Below are positions 1 through 5,794 of a stretch of 8,852 bases of DNA, one piece after another. Position 1 is the stretch's first letter, and each line of letters starts with the position of its first letter. The notes beneath the pieces are model-generated. The model was not told the origin of the DNA, made no database searches, and worked only from the letters and a program-made list of their open reading frames with translations. The DNA is from a virus. Lineage: Duplodnaviria; Heunggongvirae; Uroviricota; Caudoviricetes. The stretch lies in the IMG/VR virus record IMGVR_UViG_638341087_000017. One strand, given 5' to 3'. Made by a program: the position numbers and the translations under genes.

Positions 1-72
1 GACAAAACTCCCTATTTAAATATTCATTCCAAACACTGGGAGTCATCACAAACAGCCCCCATACATGACAAC

Positions 73-99
73 AAAAACCGGAGCCAGACTCCGGTTTTT
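73..99 (-). terminator. Bidirectional rho-independent terminator-like hairpin downstream of the last minus-strand gene
   Basis: Plus strand reads aaaaa-ccggag-ccaga-ctccgg-ttttt: a perfect 6-bp GC-rich stem (78-83 / 89-94), 5-nt loop, with an A5 run on one side and a T5 run on the other, so it has a U-tract in either orientation. It lies 15 nt past the stop codon (114-116) of the small minus-strand ORF. Confidence 0.65.
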
Positions 100-113
100 G
101 TGAATCCGTCGGG

Positions 114-383
114 TTACTTCATCCCGCCAATATTTTCCCACGTCCCGTCAGCACGCAGGATTTGCAGCGGTCTTACCACGCACTGTATCTGCTTTTTATC
201 CGCATCCAGTATCACCACCTGCGTGATTACCCTGTCCTGCTCCGGGATAATGCCATTCTCATCTGACTCCAGGATGTCTGCCGGCCCCAGTCGCAGCTGT
301 GCTGTAAGTAACTCCCCGTGTTCACGGTCATCATGCTTTCCGCAACCACACAGACGCTGCATAAGTTTTTTTAGTATGTTCAT
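114..383 (-). CDS. Hypothetical 89-aa protein; C-terminal ~55 residues paralogous to the C-terminal domain of the upstream tail fibre
   Basis: ATG at 383-381 is preceded by a strong Shine-Dalgarno (minus strand CAGGAGAATGAC-ATG). It sits 1 nt after the TGA stop (387-385) of the fibre gene, which suggests translational coupling. Stop is TAA at 116-114. Product MNILKKLMQRLCGCGKHDDREHGELLTAQLRLGPADILESDENGIIPEQDRVITQVVILDADKKQIQCVVRPLQILRADGTWENIGGMK. The segment RLGPADILESDENGIIP...LQILRADGTWENI aligns with the fibre C-terminus [17 protein letters not shown]...[13 protein letters not shown]. The 133-aa track ORF (114..515) is the same frame extended upstream into the fibre gene; the SD-associated ATG at 383 is the more plausible start. 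I do not recognise the N-terminal 30 residues. Confidence 0.6.
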   Translation of the reverse strand: MNILKKLMQRLCGCGKHDDREHGELLTAQLRLGPADILESDENGIIPEQDRVITQVVILDADKKQIQCVVRPLQILRADGTWENIGGMK

Positions 384-384
384 G

Positions 385-1590
385 TCATTCTCCTGTTCTG
401 CCTGTATCACTGCCCACTTCATCCAGCCCCTTAACATCCTGCCACGGCCCGTCACCAAACCTGACCTGCAAATGCCGAAACAGCCCCTGAACCTGTGTGG
501 CATCTTTGGGGTCAAGAAAGGTCAGTCCGGTGATGAGTGCGCCATCTGTATCCGGGAACCAGCCATTGCTGTTTGTCTCAATAATGCTCGCCGGCCCCAG
601 ACGAAAACGGATTTGTGTCTCCCCCGGGTCGCCCTTCGGTCCCTGAGGTCCGGTTGCCCCCACCGGGCCAGCCGCACCTGTTTCTCCTTTCGGTCCCTGT
701 GGGCCTGCCGGACCAGCATCACCTGCCGGTCCCCGTTCGCCGGTTGCCCCGACAGGGCCGGTGTCACCGCGCTCTCCCTTATCACCCTTCGGCCCCTGAG
801 GACCCGCGGGCCCCTGTTCCCCCTTTGGCCCGGGAGGTCCCACCACGGTGGGGATTCGGTTTACGGCCTCTTCCGCCGCTATCCTGCTTTGTTCCGCTGA
901 CTGTGCGCTTTCTGCTGACTCCCGGGCTTTTTCTGTTGCGGTCGTTGCATCCCTGGCTGCATTACCGGCTGCACTTTCTGCCGTCTTTCTTGACAATTCA
1001 GCTTCTGCTGCACTTTGTGATGACTCACTGGCTTTTTGAGCGGCCGCAGAAGCCGAGGACGAGGACGCATCCTCTGACTGCTTTGCAGCGGCTGCACTTT
1101 CTGCCGCCTGCCGGGCTGACTCCGATGCCTCCCCTGCTGAAGTGTCAGCATTTGCAGCGCTCTCTTCTGCCTGACTGGCTGATATGCCGGCATTCCTCGC
1201 TGACGTCTCCGCCTCTCCGGCATTCTTCTTCGCCTCCTCAGCGTGACGCGCCACCTCTTCCACCATCAGTTCAAAACGACGCAGTGCCTCCGGCCGGACG
1301 TCATCCTCCGACATGGCACCGAGAAAATCATTCAGCGTCCCCGGTTGAGAATCTTCATACACGGTGATGGTCCCGGCATGTGACGGCGGGAATCCTTCCA
1401 CCAACAGAATGACGCTGTACTGACCGTACTCAACGTCCATGCTGTAACGACCGGCTTCATCCGGATTTTCTGAGGCCACCGTGTTCACCACCACCGTGGC
1501 GCTGTTACGTCTGGCTTTCAGTTGAATGGTGCAGTTCTCTACCGGTTTTCCTGTGCCGTCTTTCAGTACACCTGAAATCTTTACTGCCAT
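385..1590 (-). CDS. stf: Side tail fibre protein (lambda Stf-like N-terminus) with Ala/Ser/Glu-rich low-complexity region, collagen-like Gly-X-Y tract and a ~76-aa C-terminal domain
   Basis: After the track's leading MN, the product begins [97 protein letters not shown], which matches my recollection of the lambda Stf N-terminus. I place the start at the ATG at 1590-1588 (the track starts 2 codons upstream at a GTG, 1596). Position after lom matches the lambda order J-lom-stf. Stop is TGA at 387-385. Confidence 0.85.
616..840 (-). repeat. Collagen-like tract: 25 uninterrupted Gly-X-Y triplets inside the tail fibre gene
   Basis: Translation [75 protein letters not shown] has glycine at every third residue with no interruption. 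On the plus strand this appears as a Pro-rich mirror frame (track ORF 615..1367). Confidence 0.85.
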
Positions 1591-1601
1591 ATTCACCCCA
1601 C

Positions 1602-1627
1602 AAAAAAGCCCGCCTGAACCGGCGGGC
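1602..1627 (-). terminator. Rho-independent terminator-like hairpin downstream of lom
   Basis: Plus strand aaaaaa-gcccgcc-tgaacc-ggcgggc: a 7-bp GC stem (1608-1614 / 1621-1627) with 6-nt loop. On the minus strand the stem is followed by TTTTTT. It lies between the lom stop (1657-1655) and the stf start (1590). Confidence 0.7.
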
Positions 1628-1654
1628 TGTCATAACACTGTGTTACCTGGCTAA

Positions 1655-2254
1655 TCAGAACTTATAACCGACACCCATGATGAAACCGTCAGTGCGCCAG
1701 TCGCCACTGCCGGAGCCTTCATAAGCAATATCAATGGCCACGGATTCGGTCGGGTTAAACTGCACGCCAGCTCCCCACGCCAGAGACGTGTTGCTGTGGC
1801 GACCGTCATCACTTCCGGTCAGCACGTCGTGCGTTTTCCCCTTGTTGTCAGTTACGCGGAGATAATCCCCGGAGAAAGTCGACACACGGCTGTAAGCCAC
1901 TCCCGCCATCGCATACGCGCTGAACCATTCATTCACGCGCACAGACGGCCCCGCCATTACGCTGAACCAGCGGTTACGCACGGAATCTTCATGCCAGCGG
2001 GTATCGCTGTAACGGGTAAGCTGGCGATTCCTGTCTCCTGCATAGCTGAACGACGTCACCATCCCCAGTGTGTCCGTAAACTCATAACGGTATTTCACGT
2101 TAATCCCGTTCAGTTCATCGCTGCCAGGAACGTTCGTCGAGACATGAAGATACCCCGCGCTCAGCGTTGACTGATGTTCAGACGCCCATGCAGGCGCACC
2201 AGATACGGCCAGACAAATGGCTGCGGACAAAATGGCGGCATAAAGTTTACGCAT
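1655..2254 (-). CDS. lom: Lom/Ail family outer-membrane beta-barrel protein (prophage moron)
   Basis: 199-aa product with an N-terminal signal-peptide-like segment ([24 protein letters not shown]) and C-terminal ...[27 protein letters not shown] ending in an aromatic residue, as expected for an outer-membrane beta-barrel. It resembles lambda Lom as I recall it ([39 protein letters not shown]). SD GAGAGG lies 7 nt upstream of the ATG at 2254. Position immediately after J is canonical. Confidence 0.92.
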
Positions 2255-2278: not shown

Positions 2279-2302
2279 AAAAAAGGCGTCATTTCTGACG
2301 CC
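2279..2302 (-). terminator. Rho-independent terminator-like hairpin immediately downstream of J (tJ-like)
   Basis: Plus strand aaaaaa-ggcgtca-tttc-tgacgcc: 7-bp stem (2285-2291 / 2296-2302) with 4-nt loop. On the minus strand the stem is followed by TTTTTT. It lies 19 nt after the J stop (2323-2321) and about 25 nt before the lom ATG. Confidence 0.7.
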
Positions 2303-2320
2303 CGTTCTGGGTTATAAAAT

Positions 2321-5300
2321 TCAGCTGATACTGATACCTGCTGTGGATTTTTTCATCACCACAACCAGCAGATCGCTGATACTTGCTGTGGGATACCAGT
2401 TATTTACCAGCCATGCTGACACCGAAAACTCCAGCGTCATGTGACCGTGACCGGCAGGCATATCAATAACGCCACTGTAAATCAGCGTATTATCCAGCGC
2501 GGTACGGTTATAAATTTCAGCACCGTTTTTCCGCACTATCAGACGGCATGAGGAGTAAATATCAGTATGCTCTCTCTCATGTTTAGCGCCGCTGAATGCC
2601 ACCGCCGGAATAACAATTTGCCGGTCAAACGGCTGATCGTCATAAACCCTGACGGTAATGGTCCCTGATGGCCACCGCTCCGGTGCACGGGAATCCCGGG
2701 GGAAAGCTTTGCCCACTGTTTTAACGAGATCGCCTTCAATCTGGTTCGCGGACAGTTTTCCCAGAACCCGACAGTTCTCGTTAATCGTGACGTTGTTGAG
2801 CGTCCCGGAATTCGCATTCACGTTACCGCTGATATCAGCATTTCTTGCGGTCAGCCTGCCCTCCGGCGTCAGGGAAAACGTCGGGGGGTTGCCGGATGAC
2901 GTGATACTCACCGCAAACAGTCGCTTCAGGAACACGTCGTTCATGAACAGCTGATTCCCCTGCGCCACAAATAACGGCGTGCTGTTGCCGCTCTCCGGAT
3001 TTATCATCGCGATACGGTCAGCCAGCAGCAGTATGTTGCTCAGTGACTGGCCATCAGTATCCTCAATCCCCGCTCCAATCCCGGCCACATAGGGAATGCC
3101 GTCTTTCGTTTTTTGAACCTTCAGCATGTAAAGTGCAGCAAGGTCATCATTTGTGTCCTTCTGCACGCGCTGTATCTGCTGTATGGTGGCGCTCTGGTCT
3201 TCCAGCGTTTTACTGACCGTCTGTGTGATTTCATTGCGGGTTTCGGTGATGGTGGTCTTCATCTCCGCCATCTCATCCGCAAGCTGGCTGTTGTCTATCA
3301 GCTCCCACAGCCCCTGAGCCAGATGCAGTTTTCCTATTTTTTCCCGAAACAGCCCCAGATACCCTTCTGCATCATTGCTGGCCCGGCCACTGGCTTCCAC
3401 AAAAGCAGATTTCCCCACCAGGTTGACGCTGCGCACGTAAAACCAGAAATCCTTCCCGGGCTTAATGTGCGGGCCGGATACACTCCACTGACTGCCGGTC
3501 CCCAGATAACGGGCAGAGGTTTCCACCTGAGATGTGTCTGCGATTTTTGCCTCCGAAAACCAGAACTCAAACTGTACCGTCGGGTCATACACCGCAAGAC
3601 GCGGGACCGCTGTTATCTGAAAATAGCCCGGTGTCAGCTCAATCGTGGCGGGTACCGCAGGTGCATTAATCCTGAACGTGGTGGTGGCCGGTTCGCCCTG
3701 CTGGCCATAACTGTTAATTGCCCTGACTGTCAGGGTGTATTCCCCGAGCGGCAGACCACTGAAACGGTGCGCCGTGTCTGCGGTGATGGCGGTGGTCACC
3801 AGACGGCTGTCTTCTCCGCTTCCGCTGGTCAGGCGCAGACTGAAGCGCACACCCTTCACCACCCGCGGCGTGTCCCATTTCGCCTGTGCCAGATACTGAC
3901 CGTCAGCCGCGCTCACCTCCACCGTCAGGTGCTGCACTGCCGGCGGGATGACGCTGTTCAGCGAACCGGACAGTGGCTCAAAGCTGGCCCCGTTATCCAC
4001 AATGGCTTCTTTTTCCGGCACATGCTGCACTGCCGTGATGGCAAAGGTACCGTCCGTGTTTTCCCGGATGGAAACACAGCGGAACAGGCGACGACGCAGT
4101 GACGGCAGGGAGAGTCCCCACACACCGTATGTCTCCACGCCATCCGGCAGGGTACTGACCTGTATCCGGTCCGGCGCGGGGTGTGCGGTGATGTCCACAC
4201 TCACCGGCTTACCGCTGCCGTTAATCAGGTTCACCGTGGCGGCACCGGTCTCCGGCAGGGTCACCTCACGGTCCAGTGTCAGGGTGCGGCTGGCGGCATC
4301 GATGGACAGGACACGTCCGCCGGTCATGGTCCCGGCATAGTCGTTATCACAGATTTCAATAATGTCACCGGGTGTGTGACGCAGCCCCTGTGACCCGAGC
4401 GTGAAATCCACCGTCTGCGTTTCCAGCAGTCCGGTCTTTATCACCCACAGCCCGGCACGGTGGGCCTGACCGCGACTGGTGCAACCGAACGCATCCATCT
4501 TCAGCAGGTTGCGCCCGTAGCGCAGTATGGCTTCCGGGTCTTCCACCAGTTCCGTGGAGGTCTGCCAGCCGTTCTGCGGGTCGGTGTAATTCACCTCCAC
4601 CGCCGTGTGGCGGTCCTTCAGGGCGCTGAAGCTGTAGCGAAACCCCACGCCGTTATCATCCACCACCACATCGCAGTTGGTGTACGGCCACACCACATCC
4701 GACGGGCGGTCCTGAACGAACGTCAGCGTCTGGCCGTTCCATACCGGCATACAGCGCATCGCCGAGCAGAAATCACTGAGAACGTCCCACGCCTTACGCT
4801 GTTGTGACAGGTACGCATTAAAGGTCATCCGCGGCTCTGTGCCCCCGAAACCATCCGGGACCGTCTGGTCGCAGTACTGCCCGATGGCATACAGCGCCCA
4901 CTTGTCAACATCCGCCGCCACCAGACGTTTTCCCATGCCGTAGCGCGGGTGAGTCAGCATGTCCCACAGGCACCAGGCCGGGTTGTTGCTGTATGCCGGT
5001 TTCAGGCTGCCGTCCCAGATGCCGCTGTACGTGCGTTTTTCCGGGTCATAGTTTGACGGTACCTGGATGATGCGACCTCGGATATGGTAGTTCACCGTCA
5101 TCTGCTGACCGCCAAACTGCTCCGCATCCACCTGCATCCCCACAATCGCCGTGTTCGGGTAGCACTGTTTCACATCGATGATTTCGGTGTATGACGACCA
5201 GAGCGTCTTATTCTGCAGCTGGTCCGGGGTGCTGTCCGCTGTCTCCCGGACCATCCGGATGTTAAAAGGACGGGGAGGCAGATTATCCAGAATCACCGAC

Positions 5301-5794
5301 GCCAGAAACTGCGAGGTGGTCTTGCCGTTAATGGTGACATCCTTTTCCGTCACCCAGTTACCGTTACGCTGCAACTGAATCAGCAGTCGGACAGAAGAGG
5401 GATTACGGTCGCCCTTTGAGGTGGTCTCCACCAGTGACTGCACCCCGAAGGTGACCCGCAGACGGTCAATGTTCGCTGACGTGATGGTGCGCGTCACCGG
5501 CTTTGCCTTCGTCACTTCCACGCCCAGTGCGGTTTCAGAGCCGGATGACTCAAAACCTTCCGGCGGTGTCTGCTCCTGCTCCCCGGCGCGCCAGACCGCT
5601 GTCACACCATGTATCACAGGATTACCGTCCGTGTCCGTCAGCGGGGTTTTGTTCACCAGGATACTCTGCAGCCCCTTCACCGGACCTTCAATCGGCCCTT
5701 CACCAATGGCGTCAATCACGCTCATCATCTGCGTGGACTTAAGATTGTCCTTTGCCTCTACCGGCGTGTGCGCCTTGCCGCCACCTTTACCCAC
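2321..5794 (-). CDS. J: Tail tip / central tail fibre host-specificity protein J
   Basis: 1157-aa product starting [22 protein letters not shown]... with long stretches that match my memory of lambda gpJ ([100 protein letters not shown]). Start is GTG at 5794-5792, preceded by AGGAGAGGGGG. Size and position (after I, before lom) are canonical. The last ~150 residues differ from my recollection of lambda. Confidence 0.95.

Follow-up and report, generated by a model that had tools for sequence, protein, structure and literature searches.

A predicted collagen-like side tail fibre of the EPclA family encoded by a lambda-like prophage of Escherichia coli

A gene on the minus strand of a Caudoviricetes genome fragment (385..1590; IMG/VR record IMGVR_UViG_638341087_000017) encodes a protein in which a lambda Stf-like start is joined to a long run of collagen-like triplets. 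This locus raises the question of what kind of fibre such a protein makes, whether it belongs to a family already described, and whether its collagen-like tract really has the length given by the assembly. We analysed the whole stretch of 8,852 nucleotides, hereafter called the window, whose scope is the tail-tip module. The fibre ORF was translated from an ATG at 1590 to a TGA at 385-387, giving 401 codons; its mechanical start is a GTG at 1596, two codons 5' of the ATG. According to the ORF listing, the translation and matches to PF08400, PF01391 and PF06820, the 401-aa product has the domain order PfN-PCoil-Col-PfC.

The N-terminal region (PfN, residues 1-133; 1192..1590, minus strand) matched the Pfam family of prophage tail fibre N termini, PF08400, with an E value of 3.9e-69. 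Residues 1-93 also matched the collar-domain chain of Ur-lambda Stf, 9e7m (E = 3.5e-52, about 93% identical). In a BLAST comparison with lambda orf-401, similarity was high to about residue 116 and then decayed, ending near 116-160; it faded gradually inside the coiled coil and did not stop at a domain boundary. An AF2 model of the fibre monomer began with six strands followed by a helix. In the cryo-EM structure of Ur-lambda Stf (PMC12617516), residues 1-94 likewise form a six-stranded beta domain plus a helix, and 12 copies make a collar at the gpV/gpM junction, from which flexible linkers lead to four trimeric fibres. On the strength of these matches, residues 1-93 are assigned to the Stf collar domain for tail attachment, and the coiled coil is predicted to start from about residue 98.

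The next region (PCoil, residues 134-250; 841..1191, minus strand) is rich in Ala, Ser and Glu. Across residues 101-250, the composition was 30% Ala, 16% Glu and 16% Ser. The dominant period of Ala/Ser across residues 98-247 was 3.5 residues, which was equalled in none of 500 shuffles. Helices were modelled by AF2 at 98-171 and 177-244 with a pLDDT of 75-93, and the coiled-coil helix was the only confident part of the model. The region is read as a trimeric coiled-coil shaft, as is known experimentally for EPclA (PMC3368898; see below).

Downstream of PCoil lies the collagen-like tract (Col, residues 251-325; 616..840, minus strand). A regular-expression count found a single run of exactly 25 Gly-X-Y triplets, and the tract matched Pfam Collagen (PF01391; E = 2.6e-14). 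Because glycine makes up only 7.4% of the remaining protein (frequency, 0.074), 25 in-phase glycines are no chance event; their probability is about 5e-29 per start. Pro occupies 13 of the 25 X positions and Asp or Glu another 9, while the Y positions hold five each of Lys, Ala and Thr, four Gln, and two each of Arg, Pro and Val, so that Lys or Arg is found at Y in 7 triplets. The protein ends with 76 residues (388..615, minus strand) that include a match to the prophage tail fibre C terminus, PfC (PF06820, residues 327-390; E = 5.7e-36), and are identical in all 76 positions to the C terminus of the tail fibre protein H0004 of VT1-Sakai. The C-terminal 76 residues are presumed to be the distal tip and to serve as a trimerisation and helix-nucleation module. 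The AF2 monomer of the full fibre, built on an alignment of 31 sequences, had a mean pLDDT of 55.6, with about 30 for Col and about 40-50 for PfC; the alignments used for AF2 were shallow because the protein family is narrow. An earlier note on this DNA, made from the letters alone, had described a lambda Stf-like virion-attachment N terminus, an Ala/Ser/Glu-rich helical stretch and 25 uninterrupted triplets at 616-840, and all of these descriptions held, the last of them to the exact count and coordinates.

To which family does this protein belong? The exact fibre protein is present in RefSeq as WP_000268878.1. Compared with the 437-aa tail fibre H0004 of VT1-Sakai (Sp15, from E. coli O157:H7 Sakai), 398 of 401 aligned residues were identical; the two proteins differ by three substitutions and a clean 36-residue gap in the collagen tract, with no other difference. 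The VT1-Sakai tract holds 37 triplets (111 aa), whereas that of the present fibre holds 25 (75 aa). The non-collagen parts therefore have the same length, 326 aa in each case (401 - 75 and 437 - 111). A protein of this kind was named EPclA, for EHEC prophage collagen-like protein A, by Ghosh et al. in 2012 (PLoS One 7:e37872, PMC3368898), who described the architecture PfN-PCoil-Col-PfC and reported copies of 437 aa in Sakai and EDL933, with a PCoil of 116 aa and a collagen domain of 111 aa. The primers with which EPclA was cloned in that study match the two ends of the present gene exactly (1564-1590 and 388-414). The fibre shares PF08400 and PF06820 and more than 90% identity with the named copies. 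Between PfN and Col it has an Ala/Ser-rich PCoil of about 116 aa with heptad-type periodicity, followed by a single uninterrupted (Gly-X-Y)n. Pro is favoured at X and Lys, Arg, Ala, Thr or Gln at Y, matching the preferences in Table 4 of PMC3368898. The gene also resembles EPclA genes such as ECs2717 and ECs2941 of E. coli O157:H7 Sakai in its position behind J and lom and in the small PfC-only gene downstream. By all of these sequence comparisons, the fibre gene is a member of the EPclA family.

Much of what can be said about the folding of this protein comes from the work of others on near-identical proteins. Recombinant EPclA is a trimer, seen in electron micrographs as a dumbbell with a hinged stalk (PMC3368898). 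In the same study, its Gly-X-Y tract gave a collagen circular dichroism spectrum with a Tm of 42°C, and the Ala/Ser region was a trimeric coiled coil with a Tm of about 52°C. PfC trimerised on its own, and a Col-PfC fragment refolded rapidly, with PfC renucleating the collagen helix. A triple-helical, collagen-like shaft and a C-terminal trimerisation module had both been suggested in the earlier note; they have been demonstrated experimentally in the EPclA family, the latter in a protein 99% identical to the present one, although the note did not recognise the published family. The reading of the fibre is correct but ordinary, with nothing new in its interpretation, because the EPclA family was described and biochemically characterised in 2012. 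Its importance goes little beyond correct annotation, the family, the helix, the trimerisation domains and the length polymorphism having been in print since then.

The relation to lambda Stf (PDB 9e7m and 9mgh; Sci Adv 2025, PMC12617516) is one of a shared proximal half and an exchanged distal half. Both proteins have the collar domain followed by an Ala/Ser-rich trimeric coiled coil, their genes lie behind J and lom, and a role in fast initial adsorption is presumed for both. In lambda Stf, the coiled coil is much longer (residues 102-393; PMC12617516); a hinge, a gp37-like distal domain containing Pf2 repeats and a domain that binds OmpC come after it, and the protein depends on the Tfa chaperone. 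The present fibre has instead the collagen helix and the self-trimerising PfC knob. In Pfam searches, neither PF03406 nor other distal Stf domains were found in the fibre, and Pfam and phrog searches found no tfa gene downstream of it, the gene in that place being the PfC-only ORF. The earlier note had stated that the shaft differs from that of lambda. This was right for the distal half, in which the hinge, the gp37-like part, the receptor-binding domain and Tfa are replaced, but not for the Ala/Ser coiled coil, which lambda Stf also has.

We then considered the length of the collagen tract, for which the earlier note had foreseen variation between isolates through slippage or recombination. 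Among the 67 full-length homologues retrieved, the tracts contained 4, 8, 14-17, 19-21, 25, 26, 32, 34 or 37 triplets, and Stx phage genomes carried fibre forms of 389, 407, 437 and 440 aa. The EPclA collagen domains in the tables of PMC3368898 measure 63, 78, 81, 111, 114 and 144 aa, always in steps that are multiples of three. The 75-aa form found here is absent from these 2012 tables and present in RefSeq. The indels that we saw in the collagen tract were also all multiples of three, the pattern that selection for an open frame would be expected to leave.

The genes around the fibre support its place in a tail module. The window was 100% identical to contig AAJV02000005.1 of E. coli GCA_000167855.1 across 7590 bases. 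Pfam identified, on the minus strand, the end of H followed by M, L, K, I, J (1157 aa) and an Ail/Lom outer-membrane protein, and then the fibre gene. The L, J and M proteins are 76%, 66% and 45% identical to their lambda counterparts, respectively. Comparison with the lambda map showed that the order J-lom-fibre is that of lambda J-lom-stf. All tail genes from M through the small PfC gene are intact ORFs of the expected lengths. Behind the small PfC gene, a hairpin with a U-run (72..95, minus strand) had a folding energy of -30 kcal/mol (z = -5.3), a stability equalled in 0 of 200 shuffles; it is probably the end of the transcription unit. The terminator scan detected two further structures on the minus strand, a terminator-like hairpin between lom and the fibre gene (1607..1628) and a hairpin plus U-run behind J (2284..2303). 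A TGTTATGAC motif is found at 1629-1637 on the minus strand, and the 2012 paper, which noted this upstream motif, proposed it as a promoter (PMC3368898). J, lom and the fibre pair are each flanked by terminator-like structures within what is expected to be a single late operon; the internal hairpins are presumably read through by means of Q-type antitermination.

Separately, we noted by eye that BLAST conservation of J (2321..5794, minus strand) was lower in its C-terminal receptor-binding domain, at about residues 1027-1157. Judged from this sequence, J may use a receptor that need not be LamB.

Taken with the architecture, this context makes it very probable that the gene is an EPclA allele whose product serves a lambda-like siphovirus prophage of E. 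coli as its side (lateral) tail fibre. The most serious rival reading is that the gene is an intact but unused relic of a defective prophage, never placed on a particle, with its triplet differences arising from neutral drift. EHEC-type genomes, including those matched here, hold up to 17 paralogous copies of the fibre region, several of which are frameshifted or split (Table 2 of PMC3368898; fusions of 494 and 527 aa), and the J gene beside the VT1-Sakai fibre gene is truncated. However, the intactness of the window's tail genes from M to the small PfC gene and the in-frame nature of all collagen-tract indels speak against such a relic, and we regard it as unlikely.

How the present allele came by its 25 triplets could be traced in the DNA. 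Its best matches in complete E. coli genomes have 108 extra bases. Alignments with E. coli 10671 and VT1-Sakai placed the junction of this 12-triplet in-frame deletion, relative to the 37-triplet allele, at 690..716 (minus strand). Two copies of an imperfect direct repeat, each about 35 nt long and coding for an 11-residue motif, bound the 108-bp difference. According to DNA and protein alignments, the switch from the variants of the left copy to those of the right copy occurs within an 11-nt exact block, CCGGCAGGCCC. Tandem Repeats Finder detected no DNA-level tandem array in 300..1700; the only repeats in the tract at the DNA level were dispersed direct repeats of 21-23 nt, among them a family called D1. 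The Gly-X-Y periodicity is thus a feature of the protein. Since there is no DNA-level tandem array, the events are better explained by recombination, either among the dispersed copies of the motif or between paralogous prophages, than by simple slippage. The length variation anticipated in the earlier note was confirmed.

The same direct repeat could also be a source of error, in that 25 triplets might reflect an assembly collapse of a true 37-triplet allele through the internal repeats and the paralogous prophages. Both assemblies that contain the exact protein are drafts. Yet the two assemblies, GCA_000167855.1 and GCA_013047345.1, are independent of each other and share the same allele. Other 25-triplet alleles, 11-12 substitutions away, are found on 22 and 4 additional contigs, including one of 2.7 Mb. 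The 11-nt exact block shared by the repeat is too short to mislead an assembler, and alleles of 21, 26 and 27 triplets are present in finished phage and E. coli genomes. With the protein shared by two assemblies and diverged 25-triplet alleles on other contigs, a collapse is very improbable.

If the gene is indeed an EPclA-type side tail fibre, its assembly can be outlined as follows. Three chains would form one fibre, anchored by its three N-terminal beta-sandwich domains (residues 1-93). The collar domains would sit in a 12-membered ring where the tail tube meets the tail tip, giving four fibres per virion as in lambda. Past the collar, an Ala/Ser-cored trimeric coiled coil would extend over about residues 98-245, and beyond it the 25-triplet collagen triple helix would measure about 21 nm (75 residues at about 0.29 nm each; the rise per residue calculated in PMC3368898 is 0.288 nm). 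A small trimeric PfC knob would end the fibre and would nucleate folding of the collagen helix from the C terminus. By analogy with lambda Stf, this knob may contact the host surface and accelerate the first, reversible phase of adsorption, which precedes receptor engagement by the central fibre J. We infer that virions made by the prophage carry this fibre and that PfC is a receptor-binding domain. Changes in triplet number would arise by recombination or slippage between near-identical tract motifs or between paralogous prophages in one genome. EPclA-type fibres belong to the lambdoid prophages in which genes for Shiga toxin and type III effectors reside, so the length and tip of the fibre probably influence which strains such phages reach. 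The questions of the PfC receptor, of a tuning of adsorption by shaft length and of the PfC-only gene concern the whole family and are not specific to the present window.

Binding to host matrix or cells is known for the collagen-like proteins of several pathogens, and Ghosh et al. left open the possibility (PMC3368898) that an EPcl-type protein could be a bacterial surface adhesin acting on host tissue, comparable to Scl1/Scl2 of Streptococcus, and no virion component, but for the present gene this reading is very improbable: the protein begins directly with the Stf collar domain, which leaves no room for an N-terminal signal peptide, domain searches found no cell-wall or membrane anchor in the fibre, the gene lies within a tail operon, and the known expression of EPcl-type proteins is tied to phage induction. 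Scl1 and Scl2 of Streptococcus pyogenes and BclA of Bacillus anthracis resemble the fibre in their Gly-X-Y triple helix, which lacks hydroxylation, owes its stability to charged residues and is nucleated by a neighbouring globular trimerisation domain. They differ in being anchored cell-surface or spore proteins with other flanking domains and other X/Y preferences. A related protein is EPclB, which forms the lateral fibres of Stx phages with short tails (933W L0121, Sp5 ORF67/ECs1228 and phi24B gp61). EPclB likewise combines a beta-sandwich at the N terminus with coiled-coil and collagen parts and a C-terminal PfC, and its gene is followed by an 89-aa PfC-only gene (Sp5 ORF68). Unlike the present fibre, it has two collagen domains split by a Pf2 repeat, a length of about 645 aa and a podovirus adaptor in place of a lambda-type tail tip. 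EPclB was located at the tail end of phage Sp5 by immuno-EM (PMC5155283), and a preprint on phi24B argues that its PfC-bearing fibre is unlikely to bind BamA.

The small gene downstream of the side tail fibre gene (114..383, minus strand) encodes 89 aa consisting of a PfC domain only (PF06820, E = 5e-36; phrog_576, E = 1.8e-60). It starts 4 nt past the fibre stop codon and is preceded by GGAG at 390-393; the annotation of the source contig also lists a gene of 89 aa here. Its product is 40% identical to the fibre's own PfC. The protein is very widespread, with 1362 members in one 90% cluster. An AF2 model built on an alignment of 17 sequences had a mean pLDDT of 50.9. In Sp5, the homologous ORF68 is dispensable, and a role as a reservoir of variation for the tip has been proposed for it (PMC5155283).

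Several natural fusions connect the fibre with this small ORF. The frame of the small gene (+1 relative to the fibre gene) is open upstream to 515, that is, for 44 codons (384..515, minus strand). Several assemblies lack 1 nt of a G4 run at about 484-487, which fuses the fibre frame into the small ORF and yields the 494- and 527-aa proteins (loci L007-L009, 1501-2985); these consist at this end of half a PfC, an out-of-frame linker and a second PfC. These fusions occur on dozens of contigs, including some of 5.2-5.3 Mb, and may be either real alleles or homopolymer sequencing errors. In another case, a 95-aa entry (P0211, L004 4-291) at the very start of a 3.3-kb contig, a collagen tract (ending in GATGERGPA) is joined in frame, at a shared Gly-Pro-Ala, to the PfC of the small ORF (containing DILESDENG). 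The matches listed contained no fibre that is normally tipped by the small-ORF PfC; the small-ORF homologues listed, at least 120 in number, were all 131 aa or shorter, and 85 of 86 fibre C termini resembled the fibre-type PfC more closely than that of the small ORF. The exceptions with a small-ORF PfC are frameshift or deletion fusions.

Such fusions hint at a role of the small gene as a cassette. It is nevertheless doubtful, in our estimate, that the translationally coupled small gene supplies a functional second tip, either by co-assembling with or capping the fibre or as a cassette that replaces the tip and switches host range. If the cassette version were true, a 1-nt deletion or a short recombination would swap the fibre tip and change the host range. 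Two translational routes to a longer product were also rejected. Programmed frameshifting into the small ORF is unlikely because reaching that ORF takes a shift to +1 and slippage on the G4 run would give -1. Read-through of the fibre TGA would meet the next stop after 17 codons.

Two long antisense ORFs on the plus strand, at 100..900 (266 aa) and 615..1367 (250 aa), lie opposite the collagen and coiled-coil coding regions. Their predicted products appeared by eye to be rich in Pro, Ser, Leu and Arg. From their composition, we judged these ORFs to be by-products of biased, periodic codon content.

Past the left end of the window, the source contig (L002, 7591-11724) carries a type III effector gene (PF06416, NleG) and a gene for a 1128-aa DUF4765 protein. 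In other strains (L007), the same position is occupied by genes for an OspG kinase and Cif. Effector genes appear to be interchangeable at this site, behind the tail fibre genes.
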